In this document: piece after piece, positions 7,704 through 64,000 of the stretch
Layout: the number at the start of each line of letters is the position of its first letter
Numbering within the stretch: the stretch's first letter is position 1
DNA from: Patescibacteria group bacterium
GTDB taxonomy: Bacteria; Patescibacteriota; Patescibacteriia; PEXW01
Length of the DNA: 64,000 nt
Direction of reading: 5' to 3'
Assembly: GCA_038063455.1 (NCBI GenBank)
Contig: JBBTVB010000001.1
Location: 13,719-77,718, forward strand
Position numbers and translations under genes: made by a program
Notes under the pieces: generated by a model
The model's input: only the letters and a program-made list of their open reading frames with translations
Told to the model about the DNA's origin: nothing
The model's database searches: none

Positions 7704-8813
7704 TTACGTTGCAAATGGTTTGCACACCTGTGCTTTGAATGCAGAGAAGCGCAGGAGGAGAGTTTGTTTTTCGGCTGGGATGTCCGTCAACTTTCCACTT
7801 AAAGGCAGTTGATTGCACAAGAGCGGTTGAAGCTCAATGGTCATGTTGCGTCGGGCAAGTAGTCGCATCTTGAGCTCTTGCTGTCTTTTCCGATTTGCTC
7901 GTTTATCTAGAAACTTACTAAACGGAAAACTCTTTTGTAGTTTTCCAAAACCGATTACACACACCGAAGCCACAATTACGACGCCTATTATGGAGCCAAG
8001 AATGCTTATCATTGTCTGCATCGTTGGTTGCAAAAGTAGTTGAATGCAAAGCAATATCATGCCGATGGCGCTCCAGGTCGTCGGTCGTAACAACTCGGTC
8101 CAGCCACGTCCATCGAATATTGGCCAGTCAGGACGATACCACCATATAGACTTTAGTGATTGTTTCCATGGGTGTAGCAGTACGGTGAGCACAGGTCCTG
8201 GTACTTTTCCTCGACTAACCACGAAAACTGCGCCGATGAGCCCAATGATCGTTCGGGCTATAAGCCAGGCGGCGATGACAAAGGGTTGAACAGTAAATGC
8301 CGTAAGGGCTCGACGTCGAAGGTGGCATTGATCACGTGGCTTCGTTTCAAACCATAAGTTGCACCAGAAAGTGAGCCACTGGGGCGGCTTCTTGGCGAAG
8401 AATTCTAACGCAACATGAATTGGTCGCGTGTCGGCCCCACCTGAGACAGTAAATTTTTTCTCAATTCGTTGTCCACCCCTGTTGTACAGCCGATAGGTGT
8501 ACTGTTCTCCTTCGCGTTCGGTGTATTTGGCCAGATCACTTCCATTTGCATTATCACTCGATAGCATTATGGCGTAGAGTTCATGTTGACCAGCACTTTG
8601 AAACGTAATGTACGTTACAATTGCGTCCAGTCTACACAACATACGATGCTCATGGCTATTTTCCATGTTTCGATAGCCCACAAGCACGTAGGGGTGCAAT
8701 ATACTACCTGCTCGTAGACGTTCCACGGTTGTTGGAAGCAGACACCACCGAATCGGGATAGTTGCGCTTGTAGCTTCTTGGCTTTCAACCAGTAAACTAA
8801 GACTTTTTTGCAT
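7704..8813 (-). CDS. hypothetical membrane protein (soluble N-domain, about 4 TM helices, charged C-tail ending CKPFAT)
   Basis: Long ORF; GGAGG lies 8 nt upstream of ATG 8813; own terminator; AT-richer than the flanks by eye. No family recognised. Confidence 0.7.
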   Translation of the reverse strand: MQKSLSLLVESQEATSATIPIRWCLLPTTVERLRAGSILHPYVLVGYRNMENSHEHRMLCRLDAIVTYITFQSAGQHELYAIMLSSDNANGSDLAKYTEREGEQYTYRLYNRGGQRIEKKFTVSGGADTRPIHVALEFFAKKPPQWLTFWCNLWFETKPRDQCHLRRRALTAFTVQPFVIAAWLIARTIIGLIGAVFVVSRGKVPGPVLTVLLHPWKQSLKSIWWYRPDWPIFDGRGWTELLRPTTWSAIGMILLCIQLLLQPTMQTMISILGSIIGVVIVASVCVIGFGKLQKSFPFSKFLDKRANRKRQQELKMRLLARRNMTIELQPLLCNQLPLSGKLTDIPAEKQTLLLRFSAFKAQVCKPFAT

Positions 8814-16766: not shown

Positions 16767-16805
16767 AGCTTTACAGTCCTACCGCTTTACAGCTATCTTC
16801 CCCTC
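16767..16805 (+). promoter_or_regulatory. conserved 39-nt start-proximal module (AGCTTTAC...CAGCTATCTT-N6-ATG), putative promoter of a leaderless prfB mRNA
   Basis: Same motif at the same 39-nt distance from the ATG as upstream of the arnT-like gene and smpB. Confidence 0.5.
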
Positions 16806-17904
16806 ATGCCCAGTCTCACCGACCAGATCCGCGACCTCCAGGCGAAGCTTGCTTCGACTTGGGGGTTACTTTGACCTAGACCAGCGTCGGCAAAAACTCG
16901 GCGAACTTGACGACCAGATGGCGCAAGTTGATTTTTGGGCTGACCAGGAAAACGCGCGCAACGTAAGCCAGCAAGCTGAAGCCTTGCGCAAAGAAGTGGG
17001 GGAGTGGCAACAGCTGAAGGCCAACCTGGATGACCTAGGTAATTTAGCTGACGAGACTCATGAAGACGCGAAGCTGACCAAAGAAATTACGGAGCAGTTT
17101 GCCCAACTGAAAAAGCAGTTTGACGGTTTGGAGTTTCAGGTGCTGCTCGCCGGCGAGTACGATAGTAAGGACGCAATTTTTTCCGTCCACGCCGGCACGG
17201 GTGGTACCGACGCCCAGGATTGGGCCGAGATGCTGCTACGTATGCTGTTGCGTTTCTGTGAACGCCAAGGCTGGAGCGCGCGCGTCGTTGATGAATCGAA
17301 GGGCCAAGAAGCGGGTATAAAAAGTGCGACCGTTATTGTCCGTGGTCGATGGGCCTATGGCTACTTGAAGAGCGAAGCAGGTGTGCACCGCCTGGTGCGT
17401 ATTTCACCCTACGACGCGGAGAAGATGCGCCATACCTCATTTGCGCTGGTCGAAGTGTTACCCGAGTTTGCGGATGTGGAAGAGCAGGCGATTGACGAGA
17501 AAGATTTGCGCGTGGATACGTATCTCTCATCTGGTCACGGTGGGCAGAGCGTGCAGACGACGTACTCGGCGGTGCGTATTGTGCACATCCCGACGGGCAT
17601 TACCGTGACCTGCCAGAACGAGCGCTCGCAGCGGCAGAACCGCGAGACCGCCATGTCTATCCTGCGCGCCAAGTTGCACCAGCTCAACATTTCCAAGCAG
17701 CAAGAAGAGAAACAGGCTTTGCGCGGGGCCTACAGCGAGGCGGCCTGGGGCAACCAAATTCGCAGCTACGTGCTGCAGCCGTACCAGCTGGTGAAAGACC
17801 ACCGCACCAGCGTGGAAACCACCAACCCGGACGATGTGCTCAATGGCCATTTGGAACCGTTCATGGAAGGCTACCTGCGCTGGCAGAAGGGTAAAGGCAA
17901 ATAA
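16806..17904 (+). CDS. prfB: peptide chain release factor 2 (programmed +1 frameshift at 16869-16875)
   Basis: Frame 0 reads MPSLTDQIRDLQAKLASTWGLL then TGA. The GGGGG-TTA-CTT-TGA-C site shifts into the frame encoding DLDQRRQKLGEL...SPYDAEKMRHTSF...GGQSVQTT. The ORF-track extension back to 16471 is non-coding read-through. Confidence 0.92.
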
Positions 17905-26088: not shown

Positions 26089-28171
26089 TTGGTGGCGCAA
26101 TGCGTCGGCGACGTTTGACCAGCCAGGTCCCGCCGATCAGCAGTAGTACACTACAGCCGCTTACCAAGGCGCCCAAGCGAACGCTGGTTGGTTCGTAGCG
26201 GAAGCTGATCGTATGCGTGCCAGTGGGTACGCTTACGCCGAGGAAGCTGGTGTTGACCTTTAGTACCGGTGCTGTTTTTTCATCAATGCGGGCTTGCCAC
26301 CCCGGATACCACTGCAGGTTAGTAACGACAACGGTCGAACCCGTTGTTTTTACTTCAGCTTCCAGGTTCGTTGCTTCCTGCGTATGTATTCGAATAGTAA
26401 CCAACGCACTCGCATCTATAGCAGGCACAGCACCTGTCACCAGTGCCTCGGTGGCTGGATTAATATTCTGTATCGCCGCGGGGTTACTGCTAGCGACGAG
26501 TCGCTGCACTGCATGGATGGGCGGCACGGGGGCAATGTGCTCTGCCAATGTCCAACGGCCTTGCGTGTTAAGCGCGCGCCAATCTGGCGGCAGGGGCTGG
26601 AGGGTCAAAACCGTTTGTGTCCCGGTTACGGCAAGGACTTGGGTATTTGGTGATCGCACCACTAGCTGATTCTTTTTTACCAGTTGGCTGTTTGCACGCC
26701 ACAATTCTAAGTAGGACAGCGGGTAGAGCGAATCATACCCAAAGATTGTGGGTATGCCATAGGCCATGTACTGGCTGAGGTCGCTATCTCTCGACCAAAG
26801 TCGCCCAGTTGTCGTGGCTTGCGCGGTTGCTTCCAGGATAGGTGATGTGGGGTACAGGTCGGCCCGAGGCCCAAAGGGCAGAACGTGCTGCCATTGCCAA
26901 AGTCCAACCACAACTAGCGCAGCCAGTGCAATTCTGCCGCCCCAGTGCTGGAAGCGTTGGCCAAGTATTTCTGCACCCAGGCCAGCGAGAATTGCCGCAC
27001 CAAACGTCAAGAAAAAGGAAAAGCGCCATACGGTGGCTAAGGCAAGGGGAGGGATAGTTTGGCTAATGAGCAATCCCTTAAGTGTGGGAAACGCAATGAA
27101 TACACCAACGACGGCTACGGTGCTAGCTGCAACCCACCAAAGTCTTCGTCGCCAGGCTGCAAAAGAGAGCATGGCCAACAACAGCACCACGGGGCCAATG
27201 TACAAATTTCCTTCCAGGTAGTTTGCCGGACCACGGAAATTTTTTGCGTTCCCAAGAATGTTCGGGTCTGCCAGAGTGGCAAAGGCGCGGAGGTTGCGGG
27301 TTTCAAGATTAAACAGCACACTTGGCCGCACTAACTGCGACCAACGTGCAGGCGCTGGTTGCCGATACGCATAACGCGAAGCCTCTGCAATAGGCAGTAA
27401 TTGTATTGCACTCAAACCTATGCCAAGAACGAAAGCAATTGTAAAAAGGCCAAGACGTTTTTGCCATTGGTTGCGTTGCCAGAAGGCCACCGCCCAAATA
27501 CCGCTAACCAGCATAACCAGCAAGCCAATTTGCACTTGGCCACTAAAAAATGTCGCCATGGTAAGCAGGGCAATACCCACGACCCAACGCCAAGCCAGGG
27601 TACGGTGCAAACCTTGAATGGCCCACACAAGCCAGGGTAGCCATGCGGCGACCGCGCTCATGATGCTGGTGGTGCTCCACAATACAAATGGTGCACTTAA
27701 TACATACGCCAGACCAGCAAGGATACGCGATGACCGGCGCCAGCCCCAAGCTCCAGCGCACACGTACAGTCCAAGGCCACCAAGTAGGAATTGGCCGAGT
27801 ATGGAGAATGTAAAGCTCACCGCTGGTGGCAAAGACCAGAAGAGCGCCTTAAGTGGCGAGAGTACTGCTGCCTGGCCATTGGCAAAGAACGGTGTACCGG
27901 CAAAGATGAGCGGATTCCAAAGCGGAAGCTTGCCTTGCCGAATAGCCGCGTTCGTAAAGACGTGGTATGGGTAGGCTTGTACCAGTGAGTCATGTAACAA
28001 GCTGTGTTCTGGCCCATCTGTAGTGATAACCGGTAAAATCTTTGAAAGGTAGCCGACGCCTAAAGGCACATAGCCACGCAGGACGGGCCCAAACAGAAAG
28101 AGTGTGACTCCAGCAAAAATGATGACGGCAACTACGGGACCACGTCGAAAAAATGCAAGAATGCGTGACAT
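26078..28171 (-). CDS. YfhO-family membrane glycosyltransferase-like protein
   Basis: Polytopic protein with GKLPLWNPLIFAGTPFFANGQ and a C-terminal WYPGWQARIDEK...GTHTISFRYEP block typical of YfhO. Confidence 0.8.
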   Translation of the reverse strand: MSRILAFFRRGPVVAVIIFAGVTLFLFGPVLRGYVPLGVGYLSKILPVITTDGPEHSLLHDSLVQAYPYHVFTNAAIRQGKLPLWNPLIFAGTPFFANGQAAVLSPLKALFWSLPPAVSFTFSILGQFLLGGLGLYVCAGAWGWRRSSRILAGLAYVLSAPFVLWSTTSIMSAVAAWLPWLVWAIQGLHRTLAWRWVVGIALLTMATFFSGQVQIGLLVMLVSGIWAVAFWQRNQWQKRLGLFTIAFVLGIGLSAIQLLPIAEASRYAYRQPAPARWSQLVRPSVLFNLETRNLRAFATLADPNILGNAKNFRGPANYLEGNLYIGPVVLLLAMLSFAAWRRRLWWVAASTVAVVGVFIAFPTLKGLLISQTIPPLALATVWRFSFFLTFGAAILAGLGAEILGQRFQHWGGRIALAALVVVGLWQWQHVLPFGPRADLYPTSPILEATAQATTTGRLWSRDSDLSQYMAYGIPTIFGYDSLYPLSYLELWRANSQLVKKNQLVVRSPNTQVLAVTGTQTVLTLQPLPPDWRALNTQGRWTLAEHIAPVPPIHAVQRLVASSNPAAIQNINPATEALVTGAVPAIDASALVTIRIHTQEATNLEAEVKTTGSTVVVTNLQWYPGWQARIDEKTAPVLKVNTSFLGVSVPTGTHTISFRYEPTSVRLGALVSGCSVLLLIGGTWLVKRRRRIAPPTRA

Positions 28172-28395: not shown

Positions 28396-28619
28396 TGGCG
28401 GACCCGAAGGGAATCGTCACTGCGTGACCGGCTTGCTCCCGATGGGTCGCAAGCTTCGATTCCCTTCAGACAAACGATCAGTCACCACGTTATGGTGCCT
28501 GTTCGTTTGGCGGACCCGAAGGGAATCGTCACTGCGTGACCGGCTTGCTCCCGATGGGTCGCAAGCTTCGATTCCCTTCAGACAAACGATCAGTCACCAC
28601 GTTATGGTGCCTGTTCGTT
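28396..28619 (-). repeat. perfect tandem repeat, 2 x 112 bp; each unit ends (minus strand) in the last 20 nt of tRNA-Asp including CCA
   Basis: Units 28396-28507 and 28508-28619 are identical by my reading. Internal helix GAAGGGAATCG/CGATTCCCTTC plus smaller hairpins. Confidence 0.9.
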
Positions 28620-28728
28620 TGGCGGACCCGAAGGGAATCGAACCCTCGATCTTCTCCGTGACCCGCGCACCACACGCACTAGGCTCGTGTGTGCGGGGCA
28701 GGCAGGGAGACGGTGCAGCGCTGTCGGC
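28620..28728 (-). repeat. partial tRNA-Asp copy (anticodon stem to CCA) with an insertion of about 40 nt in the anticodon loop
   Basis: CACCGTCTCCCTG + CCTGCCCCGCACACACGAGCCTAGTGCGTGTGGTGCGCGG + GTCACGGAGAAGATCGAGGGTTCGATTCCCTTCGGGTCCGCCA. No acceptor or D-arm 5' part. Confidence 0.85.
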
Positions 28729-28804
28729 TGGCGGACCCGAAGGGAATCGAACCCTCGATCTTCTCCGTGACAGGGAGACGTGTTAACCGCTACACTACGG
28801 GTCC
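28729..28804 (-). tRNA. tRNA-Asp (anticodon GUC), CCA encoded
   Basis: GGACCCG-TA-GTGT-AGCGGTTA-ACAC-G-TCTCC-CTGTCAC-GGAGA-AGATC-GAGGG-TTCGATT-CCCTT-CGGGTCC-G-CCA folds as a canonical cloverleaf. Confidence 0.92.
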
Positions 28805-28972: not shown

Positions 28973-29326
28973 ATGCAACACATTCAAGGAAGCAAGGCAG
29001 AATGGACGCACAAGCCAGGGTATAGCAAAAAAGTCTTGGCGACTCCGGAAGTGCTAAAGGCGCCTGGCCTTTTGGTGCAGGAACTTTCGATTGCTCCAGG
29101 GCAAGTGGCCGCGAGCCACTACCACAAGCAGCAAGTGGAAATTTTTTACTTCCTCAATACCGCTGGGGAATTTTGGGTAAACGGCGAAAAGATCCCACTG
29201 GCAGCCGGGGATATTCTCATCGTCGAACCCAATGACAAACACGAAGTTCGGAATACCAGCAATGAGCCGTACCGGTATGTAGCGTTCAAGTATAATTGGG
29301 TAGACGACGATTACTTTGAGGGCTAA
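28973..29326 (+). CDS. cupin-domain protein
   Basis: Two cupin motifs (G..AASHYHKQQVEIFYF...G and GDILIVEPNDKHEVRN). TATACT lies 7 nt before the ATG. Confidence 0.8.
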   Translation: MQHIQGSKAEWTHKPGYSKKVLATPEVLKAPGLLVQELSIAPGQVAASHYHKQQVEIFYFLNTAGEFWVNGEKIPLAAGDILIVEPNDKHEVRNTSNEPYRYVAFKYNWVDDDYFEG

Positions 29327-30915
29327 GGTGCAATGCGTACCAGCTGGAAATCTGGCGAGCTCAGCAGTAGGGTGCCAGGGAATGGCACGATTCCGTTTTG
29401 AATTTTTTCTAAAACCAGACCGCTGGTTGGTTGCAGGCCTTCAATGTGCACCAGCGTGGTCCCGGGTTCATTGCCCAGGTAGTAGCGAATAGTTGGTTCA
29501 TGGTGCACGTAGATATTCTGTATGTACAAGGTTTCCGGCTGTTCGGCCTGGAGGATTTTTCGCGTGGCGGGTAAGAGCGGTTCGCCTCGCTGCAGCATAA
29601 GTTCAGCCCGTTGCCCCGCCAGTGCGAGCGTGCCCACCCAGAGGAGTACGGCCATGGGTATTACTCGCCAGAGTAGTCGGGATTTACGGTAGTGCGCAAC
29701 AATAGTTAGCGCCACAGTCAACAGGCCTATACCCAGGGCGGTAAGCCACCGTCCGCTCTGGCCATCCAGCCCAGCAACATAGGCTTGGGGCACCAGCCAA
29801 TGGGTCAGGCCGTCATCGGGCACCATGCTCGGCAGCCGCCGCACGAATGCGACCACGCCCCACCCAATGAGCGCCACGGTCGTCCAGCGCAACGGCCAGG
29901 CAAACCAGCGCGTGAGCCACATTCCCATGACGAGTGCAAGAATCGGGTAGAGGGGTAGGAGATACCATGAGCTTTTGGTTGCGTTCACCGAGAGCAGGAT
30001 GATTCCGCTGGCGAGGTATATTAGGAAGAAGGTTAGCAGTTGGTCGCGTTTTTTTAAGGCCCGGCCGATTGCCCAGACGCTGGCTGGCAGGGCAAAGGCG
30101 GCAAAGGGGAAGAAGCGCTGAATAAAAACTTTCCAGTACCAGCCTGGTCCGGCCGAGAAGCCGTACAAGTTTGTTGAAGATCGTTCCACTACATCGTTGC
30201 TAATAGTGGTTTGTATAAATGTAAAGCCCCGAAGCAGCAACTGACTCACGATCCAGGGCGCGATAATTATTAGCCCTACACTAATGGACTGTAACCAAAT
30301 TTTTTTTGAGTATGTATTAAAGCCTCGTGTAAAAATGAGGTGGAGCAAGATTGGGATGCCGGCAAATGCAATGGCCGTAAATTTTGTAATAAAACCTAGT
30401 CCCAGCGCAGCCGCGACTAAGAGTAACCAGCGCGGCTTTGACCAACTCTTCCAGTAGGCCCACAGGCTAAGGACCGTAAAGAAGGTTAGCAACCCATCAG
30501 TCTCGCCAGTGCGGAAGGCGTGGCCAAAAAGGTATTTTCCCGAAAGAAAAACCATCACAGTCAACCAGATCGTTGAATGCTTTTTACTCATCTGCCATGC
30601 CCACAGTCCTATTAGTAACGTGGTCAGCGTGCCGGCAAGTGCAGACCAGAAGCGAATGGAGAACTCGTTTTCACCAAGCACGGCAGTTGCCACACCGCCC
30701 AACCAAAAACGCAGGGGCGGTTTCCAATAGTACGGCTCGTGGTTCCAGGTGAGCTCCAGCCAGTTACCGGATTCGACCATTTCGTGCGTCACTTGCGCGT
30801 GGATCGCCTCATCCCATTTTTCCAGCGGGTTGGTGCCCAAGCTCCAGAAGAACATGACGCTGGCAAGCACGGCAAGAGCAATGAACGACAGGAGTACGGA
30901 ACGAGGCGGAATCAT
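29323..30915 (-). CDS. ArnT/PMT-family (GT39/GT83-like) membrane glycosyltransferase
   Basis: Polytopic protein with N-terminal EKWDEAIHAQVTHEMVESGNW...YYWKPPLRFW typical of this family. Confidence 0.85.
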   Translation of the reverse strand: MIPPRSVLLSFIALAVLASVMFFWSLGTNPLEKWDEAIHAQVTHEMVESGNWLELTWNHEPYYWKPPLRFWLGGVATAVLGENEFSIRFWSALAGTLTTLLIGLWAWQMSKKHSTIWLTVMVFLSGKYLFGHAFRTGETDGLLTFFTVLSLWAYWKSWSKPRWLLLVAAALGLGFITKFTAIAFAGIPILLHLIFTRGFNTYSKKIWLQSISVGLIIIAPWIVSQLLLRGFTFIQTTISNDVVERSSTNLYGFSAGPGWYWKVFIQRFFPFAAFALPASVWAIGRALKKRDQLLTFFLIYLASGIILLSVNATKSSWYLLPLYPILALVMGMWLTRWFAWPLRWTTVALIGWGVVAFVRRLPSMVPDDGLTHWLVPQAYVAGLDGQSGRWLTALGIGLLTVALTIVAHYRKSRLLWRVIPMAVLLWVGTLALAGQRAELMLQRGEPLLPATRKILQAEQPETLYIQNIYVHHEPTIRYYLGNEPGTTLVHIEGLQPTSGLVLEKIQNGIVPFPGTLLLSSPDFQLVRIAP

Positions 30916-30954
30916 GTAGGCAGGATAGCTGTAGAGCTGTAGAGGCGTAAAGCT
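30916..30954 (-). promoter_or_regulatory. conserved 39-nt start-proximal module upstream of the arnT-like gene
   Basis: Minus strand reads AGCTTTACGCCTCTACAGCTCTACAGCTATCCTGCCTAC-ATG. Confidence 0.5.
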
Positions 30955-31063
30955 ATAGACATAAAACCAAGCGCAGCCTTCGCCTCCGCTTGGTACGCTG
31001 TCTATTAAAACTAAACGAGCGCACCCACGGAGAGGCGCGCTCGGGCTATATAGCTTTAATGGC

Positions 31064-32316: not shown

Positions 32317-32586
32317 TTACTTGCTTTCCAGGGTGTCTTTCAGGATGGTACGGAGGGCGATTTTACCTTTCGTGGTTTTGAAGTACGCCTCGCGCCGTCG
32401 GGCTTCTGGAGCAGTTAGGAAGCCTTCAAAGAAGATGAGTTTGAATGGACGACGGTTTGCCGTCGAAATATTCTGGCCGGCGTTGTGTGCTTTTAGGCGT
32501 TTCTCAAGGTCTCCCGTGGAACCGATGTAGAGTTTTCGATCCTTGAGGCTTTGGAGCGCGTAGACGTAATGAAAGTCCGTAATCAT
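32317..32586 (-). CDS. GIY-YIG nuclease superfamily protein
   Basis: YVYALQS...KLYIGSTGDLEKRLKAHNAG. Confidence 0.85.
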   Translation of the reverse strand: MITDFHYVYALQSLKDRKLYIGSTGDLEKRLKAHNAGQNISTANRRPFKLIFFEGFLTAPEARRREAYFKTTKGKIALRTILKDTLESK

Positions 32587-32908: not shown

Positions 32909-33312
32909 TGGTGGAGATGAGGGGTCTTGCACCCCTGTCTAGAATGCGGCGGGCAGGTGGTCTACAGGTGTAGGGCGTTCACGGGTGTTTCGATTGTGCC
33001 GCATGGAGCGCCCAAGCCCGGCAGAATCTAGTGGAAGTAATTTTCGGTTGCGTTGTTACCACCCCCGCGCAACCTACGCCTGGAATATAACACTCGCGAT
33101 TCCCGCGCCAGGTCGCGGGGCGAATGGGCTATCGGTTTTTAAGCGAACGCCGGAGCAAAGCTGGGAACTGTGAACGCGTTAGCGAACGCAGTCTTCACCT
33201 TGCTGACAATGCTATTGGCAGTTGTCGAGTTGTCCAGCAGTTTTACGCCGTGCCGAACGCGGGCGACCCGCACACCAACCGTAATGCAATCTATCAACTT
33301 CTGAACATCCCC
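32909..33312 (-). ncRNA. ssrA: tmRNA (ssrA)
   Basis: 5' GGGGATG pairs with 3' CATCTCC-A-CCA (G3:U70). T-arm-like GGGGTGCAAGACCCC. Internal tag frame 33219..33139 reads ANSIVSKVKTAFANAFTVPSFAPAFA*. Adjacent to smpB. Confidence 0.85.
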
Positions 33313-33405: not shown

Positions 33406-33858
33406 TTAACCCTTTTGCCGCATCGCGCGGGCAACGTCACGCGACACTTCTCGTTTTTTAATCGATGCTCGTTTATCATGTGCTTTTTTCCCACGCGCTA
33501 GGCCAATGCTCACTTTTACCAAGCCGCGGTGGGTAAAGAATTTTAGCGGGATAAGCGTGCAGCCCGCGCTGTGCATTTTTCCAATGAGCGTAGAAATCTC
33601 TGAGCGCTTCATCAGCAAGTGTCGGTCGCGCTCAGGATTGTAACCGACTTGGACAGTAGCTGCGGGTTTGTACGGCGCAATGTAGGCGTGGACAAGCCAC
33701 AGCGATCTTTCCCGCAAACTCACGTATGCGCCCTGCAGGTTCATATTGCCAGTTTTGGCTGACTTTACTTCCGGCCCGGTAAGGACAATGCCAGCATCGT
33801 ACGTTTCTAGTACGTCGTAGTTAAAGGTCGCTTTTTTGTTGCGGGCCAGTTGAGGCAT
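33406..33858 (-). CDS. smpB: SsrA-binding protein SmpB
   Basis: NKKATFNYDVLETYDAGIVLTGPEVKS... Confidence 0.95.
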   Translation of the reverse strand: MPQLARNKKATFNYDVLETYDAGIVLTGPEVKSAKTGNMNLQGAYVSLRERSLWLVHAYIAPYKPAATVQVGYNPERDRHLLMKRSEISTLIGKMHSAGCTLIPLKFFTHRGLVKVSIGLARGKKAHDKRASIKKREVSRDVARAMRQKG

Positions 33859-33897
33859 AGGAGAAGGGTAGCTGGAGAGCTATAGAGCCGTAAAGCT
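33859..33897 (-). promoter_or_regulatory. conserved 39-nt start-proximal module upstream of smpB
   Basis: Minus strand reads AGCTTTACGGCTCTATAGCTCTCCAGCTACCCTTCTCCT-ATG. Confidence 0.5.
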
Positions 33898-36233: not shown

Positions 36234-37379
36234 ATGCGCATCGGTATCGACTGCAGAACTATCCTCAATCCACACTCTGGCGAACGTGCCGGCGTGGGCC
36301 ACTACGTGCATGGCTTGGTGAACGCGCTCATCCGGCAGAACCCCAAGGACGAATTCGTCCTATATTTTGATTACCGCACGCCAGATATGGGCATGTTTAG
36401 CCGGCCCAACGTGAAGGTGAAGCACTTTCCCTTCTCGCAGTACGGCAAGTACTTATCGTTTGGGTACTCGCACATGCTCATTACTGCCTACTTGCTGAAA
36501 GAAGGGTTGGATGTGCTGCACATCCCGGCCGGGTCCATTCCGCTGACGTACCCGAAAAAGGTGGTGTACACCATGCACGACGTGGCAATTTTCAAACACC
36601 CCGAGTGGTTCCCGTCATCTTTTGTTTCGCGCAACGTGCTGGTGCCGCAAACCCTGCGCAAAGCCGACGCTATTATTGCCGTGTCGGGCAGTACGGCAAA
36701 AGACCTCAAGCAGTTATTCAACATCAATGCCAAAAAGATTACGACCATTCACCACGGCTTCGACGTGCAGAAAATTCCGCTCAAGCGCCGCGCTACCGAA
36801 ACGTTGGCCAAGTTCAAATTGCCGAAGCAGTACTTCCTGTTCGTCGGCACGCTAGAGCCGCGCAAAAACGTCGAAAACCTAATGCGCGCCTTCAAACAGC
36901 TGCAAGAAAAAACCCCGGCTGCCAAAGATGTGGTGCTAGTGCTAGCTGGCCAGTACGGCTACCACTCCGAACAGATCATGCAGGAGATGCTCGACTTAGG
37001 GCTTAAACGGAGTATCCGCTACCTTGGGTATGTTAGCCACAACGAAAAGTTAGAACTTATCAAGCACGCTACGGCCTTTACCTTCCCCACGCTGTACGAA
37101 GGGTTTGGCTTGCCCGTGCTGGAAGCGCTCGCTTTGGGCGTACCGGTTATCACCAGTAATAACTCTTCGTTGCCAGAAATTACCGGTAAGGCTGCAATCC
37201 TGGTTGACCCGAAGAACGTCAACGACATTGCCCGCGCCATGCGCGACATTTTGACCAAGCCCGCAACCGTGCAGCGCCTGCAAGCAGCCGGGCCCAAGCA
37301 AGCGCTGTCGTTCTCTTGGGACACCTGCGCGCAAGAAACCATGAAGGTGTACCGCAAAGTGGTGGGGAAGAGGGCGTAG
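36234..37379 (+). CDS. glycosyltransferase family 4 (GT-B fold)
   Basis: MRIGIDCR... with a C-terminal EGFGLPVLEALALGVPVITSN motif. Confidence 0.88.
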   Translation: MRIGIDCRTILNPHSGERAGVGHYVHGLVNALIRQNPKDEFVLYFDYRTPDMGMFSRPNVKVKHFPFSQYGKYLSFGYSHMLITAYLLKEGLDVLHIPAGSIPLTYPKKVVYTMHDVAIFKHPEWFPSSFVSRNVLVPQTLRKADAIIAVSGSTAKDLKQLFNINAKKITTIHHGFDVQKIPLKRRATETLAKFKLPKQYFLFVGTLEPRKNVENLMRAFKQLQEKTPAAKDVVLVLAGQYGYHSEQIMQEMLDLGLKRSIRYLGYVSHNEKLELIKHATAFTFPTLYEGFGLPVLEALALGVPVITSNNSSLPEITGKAAILVDPKNVNDIARAMRDILTKPATVQRLQAAGPKQALSFSWDTCAQETMKVYRKVVGKRA

Positions 37380-37399
37380 GGGCGAAGCTTGCTTCGCCC
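37376..37399 (+). repeat. REP element (GTAG + hairpin) left of the RAYT gene
   Basis: GTAGGGGCGAAGCTTGCTTCGCCC; overlaps the GT4 stop codon. Confidence 0.7.
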
Positions 37400-37408
37400 A
37401 GACTATCG

Positions 37409-37885
37409 ATGCACCCCTTAGGCCGTCGTTCAATTCGTTTGCAAGAGTATGACTACCGTTCTGATGGGGCGTATTTTGTTACCATATGTACATTTAATAG
37501 AAAACGGTCAATTACCGAATCGCGCAAACTATTACTCAAACATGAGCTCAAAGCCCTTGAAGTCAGGTTCCAAGGCCTCCACCTAGATTTTTACATATTC
37601 ATGGCTAATCATATTCACGTCATTTTTACATTTCGCAATGTAGCAACGGAATTATCAAAAGTTGTCCAAACATACAAATCTCGAACAACAATCGGTATAC
37701 GCAAGGGCGGGTATACTGCGCCGAAGTTCTGGCAAAGAAATTATTATGAGCGAGTTATCCGAAATCAAGAAGAGTTAAATGTGCTGCGTGAATATATCCG
37801 TCTTAATCCAGAGCAAGAACGTTTTGATTTTCAAGAAATTTTACGTCAGAAGGGTCGAGCAAGCTCGACCCCTACGGCACTATAA
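37409..37885 (+). mobile_element. REP-associated tyrosine transposase (RAYT; IS200/IS605 Y1 transposase-like)
   Basis: YDYRSDGAYFVTICT, the MANHIHVIF HUH motif, and KFWQRNYYERVIR with the catalytic Tyr region. AT-richer by eye. Flanked by GTAG hairpins. Confidence 0.85.
37852..37875 (-). repeat. REP element, inverted orientation, overlapping the RAYT 3' end
   Basis: Minus strand reads GTAGGGGTCGAGCTTGCTCGACCC. Confidence 0.65.
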
Positions 37886-37897
37886 ATATTGAGACCT

Positions 37898-37923
37898 GTA
37901 GGGGCAGAACTTGCCTCTGCCCC
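37898..37923 (+). repeat. REP element right of the RAYT gene
   Basis: GTAGGGGCAGAACTTGCCTCTGCCCC. Confidence 0.7.
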
Positions 37924-38012
37924 ATAATTTAAAATTCATGCTACTCCTTGACAGAGTTGCGTTTCGGTGATAGATTAGCCGGAAACATAAAACAACATTG
38001 CAGGAGGAGTAT

Positions 38013-45719: not shown

Positions 45720-46301
45720 ATGGCTAGTACCAAGATCGGGGACACGCGGGAGCAAGAAACTCTGCGCGTGATTGCGGACATTACCATCAAGTTGGCCAAC
45801 GGGTCACTCACTCTCGAATCGGCAAAACGGTTTGCAAAGAAGGAAAGTCCCTTTACCATGCCGCAGAAGCTGTCTGTCGACGGCAGCGAACCACGCTTTC
45901 AGAGTATCTCGAAAGACGCGTACTACTACGTGAACCCGAATTTGAAAATCGAGCACTTCCCGCTAACGAATCCGGCGGTTCGCGACGTGGAGTACGAAAT
46001 TGTCGAATTTAACCATGACCCGACGACGCAGGAAATTCTGGACGCTTGCGAGACGGGTACCCTGCGCCGACCCGAACGCGACGAAGCTGAAATCTACTTT
46101 GACAATGTTCCAGACTCCAGAGACCAGCTGGGCAAATCACCGATTGTTGCTTTGTGCGGCTCTCTCCTAGAGCTCGAGGGCTACCGGTGCGTCGCGTACG
46201 CTGAGCTCAACGACTTCGGTCGCAACCTGGGCCTCCGCGGCTTCGGCGATCGCTGGTTCGGGCAGTGCCGTTTCCTCGCCGTCCGCAAGTTTGCACTTTG
46301 A
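45720..46301 (+). CDS. hypothetical protein, 'RFLAVR-tail' family (193 aa)
   Basis: AAAGGAG RBS. C-terminus PIVALCGSLLELEGYRCVAYAELNDFGRNLGLRGFGDRWFGQCRFLAVRKFAL. Terminator at 46348-46382. Confidence 0.75.
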   Translation: MASTKIGDTREQETLRVIADITIKLANGSLTLESAKRFAKKESPFTMPQKLSVDGSEPRFQSISKDAYYYVNPNLKIEHFPLTNPAVRDVEYEIVEFNHDPTTQEILDACETGTLRRPERDEAEIYFDNVPDSRDQLGKSPIVALCGSLLELEGYRCVAYAELNDFGRNLGLRGFGDRWFGQCRFLAVRKFAL

Positions 46302-46564: not shown

Positions 46565-47077
46565 ATGACCCCGAAGAATATACAGCCCGAAGAGTACTCA
46601 ACGGGCAGTGTCACGGATGGCACCCTGCACATTACTGACGGCTCTCTCCTAGAGCTCAAGGGCAACCGGTACGTCGCGTACGCTGAACTCAACGACAACG
46701 GTCGCAACCTGAACCTCAACGACTTCGACAATCGCTGGAACAGGCAGTACCGTTTCCTCGCCGTCCGCAACTCCCTTTACGTGCACAACCTCACCCATCA
46801 AAAATGGTGGGGTTGTTTGTGGTTGTTTTTGCTATACTCTATGCATGCCCGATGCGCTTGCCAAAACTGCTACCCGGTTCATCCTTCGCGAATTTGTGGG
46901 GGATATTTTGCTGTTCCCGGTATGGTGGTTTGGCAAAGGCCTGCAACGCGTTGGCCAAGCGACTTGGGCGCGCCAAGTGCGGTTTACGAACCGCAGCCGC
47001 TGGAGCCCCAAAGTGTGGTTCCAGAATATTTTTGTGCCCATGTACGGCGACTACTCGCGCAGCGGCCGGGCGATTAG
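46565..47077 (+). pseudogene. truncated paralogue of the 45720 CDS lacking an in-frame stop before its terminator
   Basis: Codons 46565 to about 46770 encode MTPKNIQ...GSLLELKGNRYVAYAELNDNGRNLNLNDFDNRWNRQYRFLAVRN, highly similar at the DNA level to the 45720 CDS tail. The frame then runs through a terminator hairpin (46786-46830) and overlaps CDS 46845..47234. Confidence 0.45.
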
Positions 47078-61438: not shown

Positions 61439-64000
61439 ATGACTCTTTTGCCATCCTTAAATGAAGCTCAAAAACAGGCGGTTACGCATGCGGCCGGGCC
61501 GCTATTGATAGTTGCTGGCGCGGGGACGGGCAAAACTACGGTCGTCACCCAGCGCATTGCCTGGCTTATTGCTGAGCAGAAGATTAAGCCGGACCATATC
61601 CTGGCCCTCACCTTTACGGACAAGGCTGCCGGGGAGCTGGAAGAGCGCGTAGACAAGTTGCTGCCCATGGGCTATGTGGACTTGTGGGTAAGCACGTTTC
61701 ACAGTTTTTGCGAGCGCATTTTGCGGGACCACGCCCTAGATATTGGCCTCACACCGGACTTCACTTTGTTGGACGAAACCGACCAGGCAATTTTGATGCG
61801 CGAGAATTTGGAGAAGTTTGAGCTCAACTACTACCGGCCGCTCGGGAATCCAACGAAGTTTGTTTCGAGTCTGATTAAACATTTCTCGCGCTGCAAAGAT
61901 GAGGCTATTCGGCCGGAAGAGTACATTGAATTTGCAAAGAATTTACAATTGGATCAGGACGCGGACCCCGCAATGCACAAAGGTAAAAAGCGTGTGCGGG
62001 GTGCGACTCCAGACAAAGCTGAAAGCGGGGAAGAGCAAGACGCACTGGAGTCGCAACGCATCAACGAAATTGCGAATGCCTACCATACCTACCAACAGCT
62101 CCTTTTTGAAAAAGGTGCGTTAGACTTTGGCGATCTTATTACCCAAGCTTTGTACCTGTTCCAACAGCGGCCGAAGATTTTAGAGCGCTACCGCAAGCAG
62201 TTTGAGTACATTCTGGTAGACGAGTTCCAAGACACCAACTGGGCGCAGTATGAATTGGTGAAGCTACTCGCCAGCCCGCAGAACAATTTGACCGTGGTGG
62301 GGGATGACGACCAGAGCATTTACAAGTTCCGCGGGGCCAGCGTGGCCAATATTCTGGCATTCAAGGCGGACTTTCCAAAAGCCGCGGAGGTTGTGCTCAC
62401 GGAAAACTATCGCTCCACGCAAAATATTTTGGACCTGGCGTACGCATTTATCCAGGCGAATAATCCGAACCGGCTGGAGGTGCAATTGGGGAGCAGTAAA
62501 GCTGTAAAGCCAGAGAGCCGTAAGGGCAAGAAGGGCTCTAAAGCTTTACCGCTCTATAGCTCTACGGCTATCAGTAAAAAACTTGTTGCTCAAGAGAAAG
62601 GCGCTGGAACCATAGAGTATTCCGTCGCACCGATCCTGGAACAAGAAGCGACGGGCGTAGTGGAAAAAATTATCGAGCTCAAGAAAAAGAAAGGCACGTC
62701 GTACAACGACTTTGCCATTCTGGTGCGCGCTAATGATTCGGCCCAACCGTTCTTGCAGCGTCTACGCGCCGCGGACGTTCCGTTCCAGTTTGTGGCCACG
62801 GCGGGCCTATACCGCCAGCCGATTGTGCTGGACATTCTCAACTACCTCAAGCTGCTGGATAACTTCCACGAGAGTGCCAGCCTGTACCGCATTCTCACTT
62901 TGCCTTCGCTCGGCATTCCGCTGCAGGATGTAATGACCATGATGGCCACGGCGCGACGGGAGACGAAGTCGTTGTTTGAAGTGTCTAAGAATATCCGGGC
63001 TTTACCTGGTATGAAGCCGGAAACCATTACCGCCGTGGAAAAATTGCATGGCTGGCTGGAGGCGCACGGACAACTGGCCCGCACGCAGCCGGTGGGGGAA
63101 GTCGCCCTCAAATTTTTGGAAGACTCGGGTTTGATGAAGCAGCTTACCAGCTCTACGGATGCCGACCATTTGGAAGTGGTCAACTACATGAACCAGCTCT
63201 TCCAGGTGTTTCAAGGTTTCCAAACGCGGCACGACGATCCGACCGTGACGAATTTCTTGCACGAGTTGGCGTTTGCCCAGGACGCTGGGGACAGCGGCAG
63301 TCTGCGGCCGCCGGAGTGGGAGCAGGGGCCGGAGGCGGTAAAGGTAATGACCATTCACAGTGCCAAAGGCTTGGAGTTTCCGTACGTGTTTATTGCGAAC
63401 CTCGTTGATAAACGTTTCCCAACAATAGAGCGGCGCGACGCCATTGCACTGCCAGACGCCCTAGTGCGCGAAAAGCTGCCTGAAGGGGACTGGCACTTGC
63501 AGGAAGAGCGGCGGCTCATGTACGTAGCAATTACCCGCGCCAAGCAAGGCGTGTTCTTCACGGCGGCCGAGGACTATGGCGGTGCACGCAAGAAAAAACC
63601 TTCGCGGTTTATTGAAGAGCTTGGACTCAAAGCCAAACCCTTCAAGCTCAAAGGGGGATTGCTCGATAGGCCGAAAGCTCCGGCTCGTGAAGAGAACGAT
63701 GCGGATGTACTCCGCAAAGCCCTGCCGCCGTATTTCAGCTTCACGCAGCTGAAGGCGTTTGAAAAATGCCCAAAGCAGTATGCGTTCGCGCACTTGCTCA
63801 AAATTCCCGTGCCTGGCCAGGCGACGTTGAGTTTTGGCCAGACCGTTCATAACACTTTGCTCAACTTCTACAAGCTGGCGCGGGAGCGGGGGAGTGCGGG
63901 GCAAGCCGATTTGTTCAGGAAGAAAGATACGGTCACTGTTGGCCCACTGGTGACGTGGTCAGATTTAATCACGATTTACCAAGCCGCGTGGATAGACCAG
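61439..64000 (+). CDS. UvrD/PcrA/AddA-type DNA helicase with the start of a C-terminal PD-(D/E)XK nuclease-like region (3' partial)
   Basis: Missing from the ORF track because it has no stop in the window. I translated AGAGTGKTT (Walker A), VGDDDQSIYKFRGA, TIHSAKGLEF, MYVAITRAK, and later FTQLKAFEKCPKQYAF. The frame is open through 64000. Confidence 0.9.
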   Translation, partial: MTLLPSLNEAQKQAVTHAAGPLLIVAGAGTGKTTVVTQRIAWLIAEQKIKPDHILALTFTDKAAGELEERVDKLLPMGYVDLWVSTFHSFCERILRDHALDIGLTPDFTLLDETDQAILMRENLEKFELNYYRPLGNPTKFVSSLIKHFSRCKDEAIRPEEYIEFAKNLQLDQDADPAMHKGKKRVRGATPDKAESGEEQDALESQRINEIANAYHTYQQLLFEKGALDFGDLITQALYLFQQRPKILERYRKQFEYILVDEFQDTNWAQYELVKLLASPQNNLTVVGDDDQSIYKFRGASVANILAFKADFPKAAEVVLTENYRSTQNILDLAYAFIQANNPNRLEVQLGSSKAVKPESRKGKKGSKALPLYSSTAISKKLVAQEKGAGTIEYSVAPILEQEATGVVEKIIELKKKKGTSYNDFAILVRANDSAQPFLQRLRAADVPFQFVATAGLYRQPIVLDILNYLKLLDNFHESASLYRILTLPSLGIPLQDVMTMMATARRETKSLFEVSKNIRALPGMKPETITAVEKLHGWLEAHGQLARTQPVGEVALKFLEDSGLMKQLTSSTDADHLEVVNYMNQLFQVFQGFQTRHDDPTVTNFLHELAFAQDAGDSGSLRPPEWEQGPEAVKVMTIHSAKGLEFPYVFIANLVDKRFPTIERRDAIALPDALVREKLPEGDWHLQEERRLMYVAITRAKQGVFFTAAEDYGGARKKKPSRFIEELGLKAKPFKLKGGLLDRPKAPAREENDADVLRKALPPYFSFTQLKAFEKCPKQYAFAHLLKIPVPGQATLSFGQTVHNTLLNFYKLARERGSAGQADLFRKKDTVTVGPLVTWSDLITIYQAAWIDQ

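Follow-up and report, generated by a model that had tools for sequence, protein, structure and literature searches.

The window analysed here, a 64,000-nt stretch of a contig from an uncultured groundwater member of the Patescibacteria, carries three unrelated housekeeping genes behind one and the same short cassette: prfB (release factor 2), smpB, and a gene for a PMT/ArnT-like glycosyltransferase. In each case a 39-nt module immediately precedes the start codon. The features are as follows.

16767–16805, plus strand: prfB module, AGCTTTAC AGTCCTAC CGCTTTAC AGCTATCT TCCCCTC
16770–16775, plus strand: −35 hexamer TTTACA of the prfB module, then an 18-nt spacer
16794–16799, plus strand: −10 hexamer TATCTT of the prfB module, then 6 nt to the ATG
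16806–16808, plus strand: ATG of prfB, the predicted transcription start
16869–16875, plus strand: +1 frameshift site of prfB, CTT TGA C, preceded by a Shine-Dalgarno-like GGGGG
29323–30915, minus strand: PMT_2/ArnT-like gene, with its ATG at 30913–30915
30916–30954, minus strand: PMT module, AGCTTTAC GCCTCTAC AGCTCTAC AGCTATCC TGCCTAC
30951–30946, minus strand: −35 hexamer TTTACG of the PMT module
30927–30922, minus strand: −10 hexamer TATCCT of the PMT module
32909–33312, minus strand: tmRNA gene, downstream of smpB
33406–33858, minus strand: smpB, with its ATG at 33856–33858
33859–33897, minus strand: smpB module, AGCTTTAC GGCTCTAT AGCTCTCC AGCTACCC TTCTCCT
33894–33889, minus strand: −35 hexamer TTTACG of the smpB module
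33870–33865, minus strand: −10 hexamer TACCCT of the smpB module

A first-pass annotation had described such a module at an identical distance before the three ATGs, and all three sites were recovered at its coordinates. Its consensus, taken as a 33-nt degenerate form that omits the ATG and the last 6 nt of the module, matches the three sites with 0 mismatches and gives 0 matches in 100 dinucleotide-preserving shuffles. A fourth match, with 3 mismatches, lies at 62542–62574 on the plus strand, inside a helicase open reading frame; the annotation had missed this degenerate copy and its inverted partner (together 62488–62573), and had also overlooked that the −10-to-ATG geometry is common to many other genes of the window. 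The copy count and the distances to start codons come from roughly 74 kb of a contig that measures 277 kb in all.

Each module is built from four tandem octamers (RGCTYTAC three times, then RGCTAYCY) followed by 7 nt. The arrays are repeats of GTAGAGCT, and the opposite strand of each octamer reads GTAG followed by AGCT. A tandem octamer had been noticed earlier in the spacer; TRF reports a period of 8 at 30927–30959, and the octamers make up all of the module but its last 7 nt. Immediately upstream of the PMT module there is a fifth octamer-like unit (ATGTCTAT).

The ATGs to which these distances are referred are credible starts. That of prfB is credible because a canonical CTT TGA C +1 frameshift site lies 22 codons downstream, and those of smpB and PMT because the N-termini of the proteins align with their orthologues. 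The NCBI-annotated prfB orthologue P0276 begins MPSLADQIRGLQ, and the orthologue in contig L022 has the same N-terminus.

The arrangement proposed at the outset, a −35 hexamer, 18 nt, a −10 hexamer, 6 nt and the ATG, is present in all three copies, as TTTACA-18 nt-TATCTT (prfB), TTTACG-18 nt-TATCCT (PMT) and TTTACG-18 nt-TACCCT (smpB). The hexamers thus fall within the 16–19 nt separation of sigma-70 promoters, and in each −10 box the second base is A and the sixth T. Measured against the E. coli consensus, the hexamers are mediocre: the prfB copy scores 9/12 and is the only one to pass a promoter scan, TTTACG/TATCCT scores 8/12, and TACCCT is weaker.

A TANNNT box ends 6 nt before 9 of the 91 open reading frame starts in the window, where about 1.4 are found at other offsets (P about 1e-5), and the same offset-6 peak is seen in relatives (5/53, 4/35 and 3/21). 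A Shine-Dalgarno sequence is absent from the 20 nt before the three ATGs, the last 7 nt of the modules being TCCCCTC, TGCCTAC and TTCTCCT, and neither GGAG nor GAGG occurs within the three modules. Other genes do have GGAGG-type sites, so that leaderless and Shine-Dalgarno-led initiation would coexist in this genome. TANNNT at 6 nt, enrichment of that offset, absence of a Shine-Dalgarno sequence and retention of the geometry in orthologues together make up the pattern of TA-led leaderless genes. We infer, with good support, that the module is a sigma-70-type promoter with transcription starting on the A of the ATG. The leaderless mRNAs suggested by the first-pass annotation are thereby supported through the layout, the offset-6 peak and the −10 boxes of orthologues, with the start site itself predicted.

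It might be supposed instead that the module is a transcribed 5′ leader, served by a promoter further upstream or by terminator read-through, and that this pyrimidine-rich, unstructured sequence acts as a Shine-Dalgarno-independent translation enhancer. No significant RNA structure was found at the three modules (fold z = −0.97, +1.68 and −0.63), the PMT copy folding worse than 198 of 200 shuffles, and the module contains no GGAGG. Because the PMT gene follows rpmI–rplT on the same strand, read-through into it is conceivable; but terminator hairpins abut the module, that of rplT adjoining the PMT copy on its upstream side, and thus leave no space for a further promoter. Also against a leader, TAYCYT stands 6 nt from the ATG, exactly at the −10 position of orthologues and of many other genes, and the best-conserved unit matches a −35 element at 18-nt spacing. 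This explanation is highly improbable. An RNA element or REP-like hairpin was rejected, since neither the three modules nor the helicase foldback described below has significant structure; in the whole window, Rfam at gathering thresholds reports the tmRNA and two tRNAs only, and nothing at the modules.

Comparison of orthologous upstream regions, which had been suggested as a check, shows that the −10 geometry is kept and the module is not. Orthologues of smpB have TATACT, 6–8 nt and ATG (L006, L018, L019, L008, L010 and L012), those of PMT have TACAAT, TACACT, TAAAAT or TAGTAT, 6 nt and ATG or GTG, and the prfB orthologue in L022 has TTGCTC-17 nt-TACACT-6 nt-ATG. The module is absent in L006, L018, L019, L010, L012 and L022; the closest relative, L008, alone has one, a degenerate module in front of smpB. 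Alignment of the smpB upstream regions places the array precisely between the T-run of the terminator and the conserved −10 box, and by eye it is likewise between terminator and −10 box in the PMT upstream sequences. Since the promoters found at these positions in relatives are ordinary ones, the cassette appears to be recently copied or expanded regulatory DNA.

A plausible history can be proposed. In the ancestor, prfB, smpB and PMT would all have been leaderless already, with compact promoters consisting of a terminator hairpin, TATACT, TACAAT or TACACT, 6 nt and the ATG; these would often have been of the extended −10 (TGn) type, without room for a −35 element. In this genome an octamer array would then have been inserted or expanded downstream of the terminator and ahead of the ancestral −10 box, preserving the −10-to-ATG geometry and adding a spacer and a −35 element. 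The last unit (RGCTAYCY plus T) would supply the −10 box and the first the −35-like TTTACR. Three 8-nt periods make 24 nt, the combined length of a hexamer (6 nt) and the spacer (18 nt), so that the TTTACR of the first unit comes to be correctly spaced from the −10 box.

Conservation within the module exceeds what a promoter needs, as had been claimed, and the spacer is better conserved than contacts with RNA polymerase would by themselves account for. Five promoter-type copies can be compared, two of them from other genomes, with pairwise identities of 26–34/39 (67–87%). The best-kept columns are those of the −35 unit, where GCTTTAC is invariant, and GCTA.C.T of the −10 unit; the spacer columns CTA..GCT.T.C are also invariant. 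An nhmmer profile finds the full copies and the helicase pair only, with no tail of weaker matches. The −10 part alone (CAGCTAYCYT) is not enriched (13 observed, 10 expected), so the signal belongs to the module in its entirety. Octamers occurring singly elsewhere in the window show no notable enrichment either (22 observed, 15 expected), and the octamer was therefore rejected as a HIP1-like dispersed word.

Such conservation could reflect a regulon operator, in which the octamers are transcription-factor sites, or mark an alternative-sigma promoter class, that co-regulates prfB, smpB–ssrA, PMT and other genes, the core promoter being merely embedded. The module is indeed a discrete class, distinct from the extended −10 promoters prevalent in this clade, its consensus is kept across three genomes, and the products of prfB and smpB alike act on ribosomes that have stalled or are terminating. 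An operator should, however, be kept upstream of orthologues, and this site is not, in six relatives for smpB and PMT and one for prfB. In other genomes the copies precede holA and a gene for a small membrane protein, neither of which has a function in common with the three genes here, and one copy lies within a coding region with a defective −10. In addition, an 8-bp period makes neighboring sites face different sides of the helix, an unusual spacing for direct repeats that are bound cooperatively. Co-regulation by such an operator is unlikely. Of the two possibilities raised by the first-pass annotation, a bound regulator or a repeat that donates promoters, the repeat is favored because the module forms a class of its own, is missing from the orthologous sites of relatives, stands before unrelated genes elsewhere and has a copy in a coding region; a bound regulator is the less likely of the two. 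The best joint explanation is that an octamer-built, propagating promoter cassette of the sigma-70 type probably gives rise to leaderless prfB, smpB and PMT mRNAs.

The coding-region copy belongs to a foldback in the gene for a UvrD/AddA-like helicase (61439 onward); the whole of it is in frame and falls in a hypervariable loop of the protein.

62488–62527, minus strand: left arm, reading on the plus strand GGGGAGCA GTAAAGCT GTAAAGCC AGAGAGCC GTAAGGGC
62528–62533: centre, 6 nt
62534–62573, plus strand: right arm, GGCTCTAA AGCTTTAC CGCTCTAT AGCTCTAC GGCTATCA

The right arm is identical to the smpB copy at 27 of 32 positions and is of the same family, and its "−10" reads TATCAG, lacks the final T and is followed by no in-frame start codon. 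The arms are inverted and pair imperfectly, in a weak hairpin (z = −1.3). Judged by its sequence, the pair is a set of promoter-dead, back-to-back copies without a usable −10. The corresponding helicase site in L017 is shorter, yet it is not a clean empty site.

Copies in other genomes repeat the promoter arrangement. At a distance of 39 nt from the ATG, the cassette precedes the gene for a 91-residue membrane protein in the Patescibacteria contigs L002 and L003, and holA in the Patescibacteria contig L004. No other similarity joins these contigs to the window, and tblastn of the proteins of L002, L004 and L005 against the window and its relatives revealed no shared genes in the stretches compared. 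The PMT and holA copies are nevertheless identical at 34 of 39 positions, so that in-situ expansion of an 8-nt unit is not an easy explanation. Without exception, the five promoter-type copies of the three genomes are placed 39 nt from a start codon, to the base, and each retains TA...T in its last unit.

A contig of Thermoanaerobaculia (Acidobacteriota), L005, shares the 16-mer AGCTTTACCGCTCTAT in an array that ends in GCTATCA just before kbl, which is probably leaderless; the array is not positioned as a promoter. In L020, a close relative, the corresponding sites hold repeat hairpins of another build, and for this reason the L005 array may be an analogous, pattern-picked repeat hairpin rather than a true homologue. 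No related arrays were found in viral contigs (three scans), plasmids or phages, the few viral matches being single chance words. One contig from the viral scans, L026, carries a repeat of a different kind.

These arrays raise the question of whether the modules are neutral debris of short tandem repeats, left by slippage in intergenic DNA, with an incidental resemblance to promoters; the repeat-built hairpins of Thermoanaerobaculia may arise in the same way. The helicase copy and the L005 array, neither placed as a promoter, the different hairpin at the same site in the relative of L005, and a duplicated terminal unit in the L002 copy would be in keeping with such an origin. Against it, five copies lie at exactly 39 nt from the start with TA...T intact, where intragenic copies have lost the final T, and each promoter-type copy directly follows a terminator, where the gene needs its own promoter; nor are single octamers notably enriched elsewhere. 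Neutral debris is therefore very unlikely.

A propagating or expanding promoter cassette fits better than a conserved regulon operator. The cassette would behave as a propagating repeat, in that it stands before unrelated genes in other Patescibacteria and has a promoter-dead pair in the helicase gene; the route may be 8-nt slippage, ectopic conversion or transposition. The promoter copies showed neither terminal inverted repeats nor target-site duplications, their flanks being too diverged to define a duplication, and no clean pair of empty and filled sites was seen for them; mobility of the cassette is therefore offered as a proposal. A bolder version, that the array is a self-propagating, target-specific element which inserts beside CTAY-containing −10 boxes, perhaps via a Y1/RAYT-type transposase that recognizes CTAC/GTAG, installs a −35 element, thereby rewires leaderless promoters and has crossed phyla, L005 being the case in point, is unlikely.

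REP structure consists of GTAG followed by an imperfect-palindrome hairpin. The genome does encode a RAYT-like Y1 transposase (37409–37885), below the NCBIfam cut-off at 68 versus 80 bits, which is flanked by GTAG-plus-hairpin sequences as in the REP and REPIN elements mobilized by RAYT (Y1) transposases (PMC8049555). Those hairpins (GTAGGGGY) occur in the window only beside that gene. Unlike REP or REPIN elements, the module has no palindromic stem and no significant fold, and a GGCGAAG-type REP motif beside the modules found no support. Any link between the transposase and the module is hypothetical.

Promoter-embedded simple sequence repeats are found in phase-variable genes of Haemophilus, Neisseria and Mycoplasma, and here too tandem repeats lie between or around the −35 and −10 elements. 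In contrast to those systems, the genes are housekeeping genes, and an extra 8-nt unit would recreate a −35-like TCTACA instead of turning the promoter off. Two pairs of near-identical contigs could be compared, the window with L001 (99.99% identity) and L002 with L003, and within each pair the octamer number is the same.

Closer parallels exist among mobile regulatory DNA. Putative mobile promoters are 50–100 nt long, at least 80% identical and located before non-homologous genes (Matus-Garcia, Nijveen and van Passel 2012; PMC3488235). The cassette resembles them as reused regulatory DNA, with similar sequences before non-homologous genes within a genome and across genera, and differs in its 39-nt length, 67–87% identity, tandem build from 8-nt units and unvarying distance from the start codon; it agrees with them in concept and falls outside the formal definition, its block being 39 nt (to about 47 nt with the fifth unit) and only one pair exceeding 80% identity. 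Correia elements of Neisseria are short repeats that supply sigma-70-like promoters, and Rickettsia palindromic elements sit in frame in housekeeping genes (PMC10969869), as the cassette and the helicase foldback do, respectively. Unlike these MITEs of 100–150 nt, the promoter copies are 39-nt, one-sided arrays of tandem octamers without terminal inverted repeats or target-site duplications.

Leaderless genes elsewhere have a TANNNT box about 6–7 nt before the start codon (PMC3160421, PMC3898074, PMC4007540, PMC12340547). The module shares with the leaderless promoters of Actinobacteria and Deinococcus-Thermus the box at 6 nt, the missing Shine-Dalgarno sequence, the geometry kept in orthologues and the coexistence with Shine-Dalgarno-led genes in one genome. 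It differs in having a fixed −35 and a near-identical octamer-built spacer, where known leaderless promoters share little beyond TANNNT, and in its host, a member of the Patescibacteria (CPR). A full-text literature search turned up no article about leaderless genes of Patescibacteria.

To our knowledge, almost nothing is known of how transcription and translation start in uncultured Patescibacteria. The window affords sequence-level evidence that genes of one CPR lineage are regularly expressed from leaderless mRNAs, and a view of promoter turnover in which the compact promoters of three essential genes would have been overwritten by one cassette with the −10-to-ATG distance kept to the base. 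If active, the cassette could serve as a compact native promoter for CPR genetic tools and would show clearly how regulatory DNA can spread in the form of a short repeat. Gene callers that expect a ribosome-binding site may misplace start codons in these genomes; two of the PMT starts called in relatives look misplaced.

The sequence was read at each of the places that the first-pass annotation had assigned to the module, ahead of prfB, smpB and an ArnT-like gene (PMT), and all three positions are exact:

16767-16805, plus strand: prfB module; AGCTTTAC, AGTCCTAC, CGCTTTAC, AGCTATCT, TCCCCTC, then ATG at 16806
30954-30916, minus strand: module of the PMT_2/ArnT-like glycosyltransferase gene; AGCTTTAC, GCCTCTAC, AGCTCTAC, AGCTATCC, TGCCTAC, then ATG at 30915
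33897-33859, minus strand: smpB module; AGCTTTAC, GGCTCTAT, AGCTCTCC, AGCTACCC, TTCTCCT, then ATG at 33858

Every module divides, in register, into four tandem octamers plus 7 nt, and the period of 8 is detected by Tandem Repeats Finder. A 33-nt degenerate consensus, which leaves out the ATG and the preceding 6 nt, finds these sites in the window with no mismatches and one further site, 62542-62574, with three; 100 dinucleotide-preserving shuffles gave no match. The occurrence of the three modules is real and far beyond chance. The start codons behind them are sound. In prfB the canonical CTT TGA C +1 frameshift lies 22 codons past the ATG, and an NCBI-annotated orthologue begins with MPSLADQIRGLQ; Pfam matches to SmpB and the PMT protein run from the first residues, and both N-termini are common to orthologues.

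The module is laid out as TTTACR (-35), 18 nt, TAYCYT (-10), 6 nt and ATG, from which we infer that transcription would start on the A of the ATG. The leaderless promoter proposed by the first-pass annotation is supported by three independent lines: an offset of TANNNT that is general in the genome, the geometry at orthologous genes and a location directly after terminator-like hairpins. When window ORFs of at least 100 codons are taken from their first ATG, 9 of 91 have a TANNNT ending exactly 6 nt upstream of it, against an average of about 1.4 at other offsets (binomial P ~1e-5). The peak persists when the modules are removed and recurs in relatives (5/53, 4/35 and 3/21). Since other window genes have clear GGAGG sites, leaderless and Shine-Dalgarno-led genes would coexist. 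In Actinobacteria and Deinococcus-Thermus, TANNNT at such a distance is the accepted mark of a leaderless gene and has been validated experimentally (PMC3160421, PMC3898074, PMC4007540, PMC12340547); the module would work in the manner of the leaderless promoters of those groups. Directly upstream of each module stands the terminator-like hairpin of the preceding gene, the spot where a gene needs its own promoter.

It might be supposed that the module is transcribed and acts as a translational enhancer. This is disfavoured because no space is left for another promoter upstream, and because TAYCYT coincides in position with the -10 box of the orthologous genes. The structure of the module RNA is not significant (fold z = -0.97, +1.68 and -0.63) and no Rfam family matches at the modules, which argues against a leader or riboswitch.

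A -10 box also lies 6-7 nt before the ATG at 28171, 28973, 32586, 34516, 54764, 58696 and 61439, in genes for YfhO-like, cupin, GIY-YIG, argS (TGcTATACT, an extended -10), rmuC, DUF975 and helicase, all of which are probably leaderless. GGAGG-type ribosome-binding sites are found instead at 8813, 9342, 10448, 10976, 18571, 20855 and 45720. The prfB frameshift site (16857-16875; GGGGG TTA CTT TGA C) retains its internal Shine-Dalgarno-like stimulator; because this is kept though the gene appears leaderless, SD/anti-SD pairing is presumably functional in the organism. Directly downstream of smpB is the tmRNA gene (32909-33312, minus strand; Rfam 79.7 bits, without an ARAGORN call), followed by the small GIY-YIG gene (32317-32586), which starts with TATAAT, 6 nt and ATG.

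Comparison of about 74 kb of the source genome with about 170 kb from relatives suggests how the modules arose. Six relatives (SmpB 72-87% identical) have TATACT, 6-8 nt and ATG at smpB, directly after a terminator hairpin; at PMT the relatives have TACAAT, TACACT, TAAAAT or TAGTAT, 6 nt and ATG or GTG, and prfB in one relative (L022; RF2 89% identical) has TTGCTC-17 nt-TACACT-6 nt-ATG. Leaderless promoters of the ordinary kind in this clade look unlike the module: they mostly carry TATACT or TACAAT, often with TGn (extended -10) ahead, and the upstream terminator fills the place of the -35. Among the relatives examined, the module is absent at prfB, smpB and PMT except in L008, the closest of those compared (ArgRS 83%, L20 96% identical), where smpB is preceded by a degenerate version, TTGCTTAC GACTCTAA AGCTTTAT CGCTATAC TCCCTTT ATG. 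In the smpB upstream alignment all genomes share an orthologous terminator hairpin and an orthologous -10 box/6 nt/ATG, and the extra sequence, about 32 nt in L008 and about 62 nt in the window, falls exactly between the T-run of the terminator and the -10 box. Upstream of PMT the arrangement is, by eye, alike:

L006 (a relative), PMT upstream: ...TTTTTGTTCTAT-GCGATG-CTACAAT-GCTGCT-ATG
Window, PMT upstream: ...TTTTATGTCTAT-[AGCTTTACGCCTCTACAGCTCTACAG]-CTATCCT-GCCTAC-ATG

Thus the 3' part of the module corresponds to the ancestral -10 region, and an octamer array was probably inserted or expanded upstream of it, bringing an added spacer and a -35 element. Since three 8-nt periods equal 6 + 18 nt, the array by itself sets a TNTACR hexamer at promoter spacing. 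The called PMT GTG starts in L008 (12495) and L019 (3896) look misplaced; slightly downstream, TACAAT, 6 nt and GTG give an N-terminus matching the window protein, which points to systematic start-codon errors for putatively leaderless genes in CPR annotations.

The module also occurs in other genomes. One scan of 185,579 species-representative genomes gave a single match, in L002, a Patescibacteria MAG from a Hainich groundwater well (the sequence is also in L003), where a 91-aa membrane protein has GGCTTTAC GGCTCTAC GGCTATCC AGCTATCC TACCCCC before its ATG. A metagenome scan found GGCTTTAC GGCTCTAC AGCTCTAC GGCTATCC TGCCTGT before the holA ATG of L004, in a CPR-like gene context (polA, holA, rpsT). 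Both copies start 39 nt ahead of the ATG, as in the window, and neither contig has any other nucleotide or protein similarity to the window and relative stretches compared. The PMT copy is identical to the L004 copy at 34 of 39 positions, and is closer to it than to either other copy of its own genome. In L002 (1867-3247) two ORFs stand directly upstream of the module: one is reverse-transcriptase-like, and the other resembles, by eye, the four-helix-bundle proteins that frequently accompany genes of that type.

All five promoter-type copies agree without exception in the columns GCTTTAC (the -35 unit), CTA, GCT.T.C and GCTA.C.T.C. The two promoter elements are the best conserved parts, and the spacer is conserved beyond the known need of a promoter. 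The matches of a profile built from the copies are confined to the full modules and the helicase pair described below; the next hits are many orders of magnitude weaker, with no tail of weaker module-like promoters. The earlier claim of conservation in excess of promoter function is therefore borne out by both the spacer and the discreteness of the class.

The fourth copy in the window is intragenic:

62488-62573: back-to-back octamer pair; five reverse units (GGGGAGCA GTAAAGCT GTAAAGCC AGAGAGCC GTAAGGGC), a 6-nt centre and five forward units (GGCTCTAA AGCTTTAC CGCTCTAT AGCTCTAC GGCTATCA)

The pair is in frame within a UvrD/AddA-like helicase, encodes GSSKAVKPESRKGKKGSKALPLYSSTA, and forms a weak hairpin (z = -1.3). 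The loop in which it falls varies strongly from orthologue to orthologue: the one in L015 (88% identical) has a diverged copy of equal length, and in the one in L017 (86% identical) the loop is shorter by 57 nt. The last unit reads TATCAG in the window and TATCAA in L015, so it lacks the final T that all functional -10 boxes require, and there is no start codon in frame behind it. With neither, the pair is senseless as a regulated promoter; it would make sense as a by-product of a spreading repeat, by analogy with the in-frame Rickettsia palindromic elements (PMC10969869). Comparison of three orthologue proteins (P0123, P0125, P0126) places the loop (62480-62580) between NNPNRLEVQL and ISKKL, with inserts that are unrelated among orthologues, reach about 50 residues and are rich in G, P, S and K (e.g. 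GNTPPLTPPSKGGEGEGAKKRGRRKNSAPQLSPSSQGGEGGGRDKAFA), which suggests repeated in-frame insertion of repetitive DNA. In L015 (3402-6572), two Y1_Tnp genes and a HicA toxin gene stand just upstream of the helicase.

The first-pass annotation had left a choice between a bound regulator and a repeat that donates promoters. An operator shared by a regulon is disfavoured, because orthologous genes do not keep the site, the module precedes unrelated genes from genome to genome, and one copy lies within a gene; the propagated repeat is favoured on the same grounds. Nor is the module likely to be neutral repeat debris, since TA...T stands exactly 6 nt from the start codon in 5/5 promoter-type copies and is lost in the intragenic ones. 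The best reading of these sequences is a sigma-70-type promoter cassette for leaderless mRNAs, built of tandem octamers, that was copied onto compact leaderless promoters already in place, or expanded there. Its spread could have involved slippage by 8 nt, with CTAY motifs around the -10 box as the seed; ectopic conversion from one promoter to another; or transposition. Each octamer unit reads GTAG+AGCT on the opposite strand, and the window holds a gene of possible relevance:

37409-37885: RAYT-like Y1 transposase gene; Pfam Y1_Tnp; NCBIfam REP_Tyr_transpos (REP-associated tyrosine transposase), 68 bits, below the 80-bit cut-off

GTAG-plus-GC-rich hairpins flank this gene (37376-37925), at 37376, 37868 (minus strand) and 37898, and the type is found nowhere else in the window. 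The transposase and the GTAG reading of the units together offer a candidate lead on module spread. The modules themselves, unlike the GTAG sequences beside the gene, are not hairpins, and a REP element was rejected for that reason.

In concept the module is akin to the putative mobile promoters of Matus-Garcia et al. (PMC3488235) and to promoter-bearing MITEs such as Correia elements (PMC10969869). It falls outside the formal definition of the former, being 39 nt long as against 50-100 nt, with 67-87% identity, and of the latter, lacking terminal inverted repeats or target-site duplications. No publication dealing with leaderless genes or with promoter motifs of Patescibacteria came up in a full-text literature search; a figure legend in a recent survey of bacterial core promoters names a CPR lineage. 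The combination of a leaderless promoter and a propagated regulatory repeat is a variant on known themes and no new principle. Its value lies in showing promoter turnover cleanly in a phylum that is poorly understood, and in offering a candidate native CPR promoter that can be tested.

The metagenome scan also matched L005, a contig of 66% G+C from a Thermoanaerobaculia (Acidobacteriota) bacterium, between a cysteine dioxygenase gene and kbl. Eleven octamers come first, in reverse orientation and with a 16-nt period, reading on the forward strand as AGCTTTACCGCTCTAT, identical to window 62542-62557; 23 nt later follow CCCTTTAC AGCTCTAC AGCTCTAC AGCTCTAC AGCTATCA TCCGCAACC ATG. This array forms a strong hairpin (z = -5.8). 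In L020, a close relative whose Kbl falls in the same 90% cluster, the equivalent place is taken by a perfect palindrome of 32 nt, made from a different 7-nt repeat, then TATGAT, 6 nt and ATG, and a second short-repeat hairpin follows its kbl. Thus the lineage carries short-tandem-repeat hairpins of varying sequence, and L005 may simply be the one whose unit the search pattern picked out; its resemblance to the module could reflect homology or convergence. Long intergenic hairpins lie at 2907-2981 and 4185-4257 in L020 and at 2256-2398 and 3600-3640 in L005; their arms are short tandem repeats of 7-, 8- and 9-mers that differ between close relatives at the same site.

Other repeats are present in the window. 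A 132-nt direct repeat (46157-46288 and 46639-46770, 87% identical, 482 nt apart) spans two small unannotated ORFs, neither with a Pfam or NCBIfam match. A perfect 112-bp tandem repeat of 2.2 copies (28396-28640) adjoins tRNA-Asp (28729-28804, minus strand) and holds extra copies of the tRNA 3' half (TGGCGGACCCGAAGGGAATCG..., three times); it looks like what successive rounds of integration and excision would leave behind at an attachment site in a tRNA gene.
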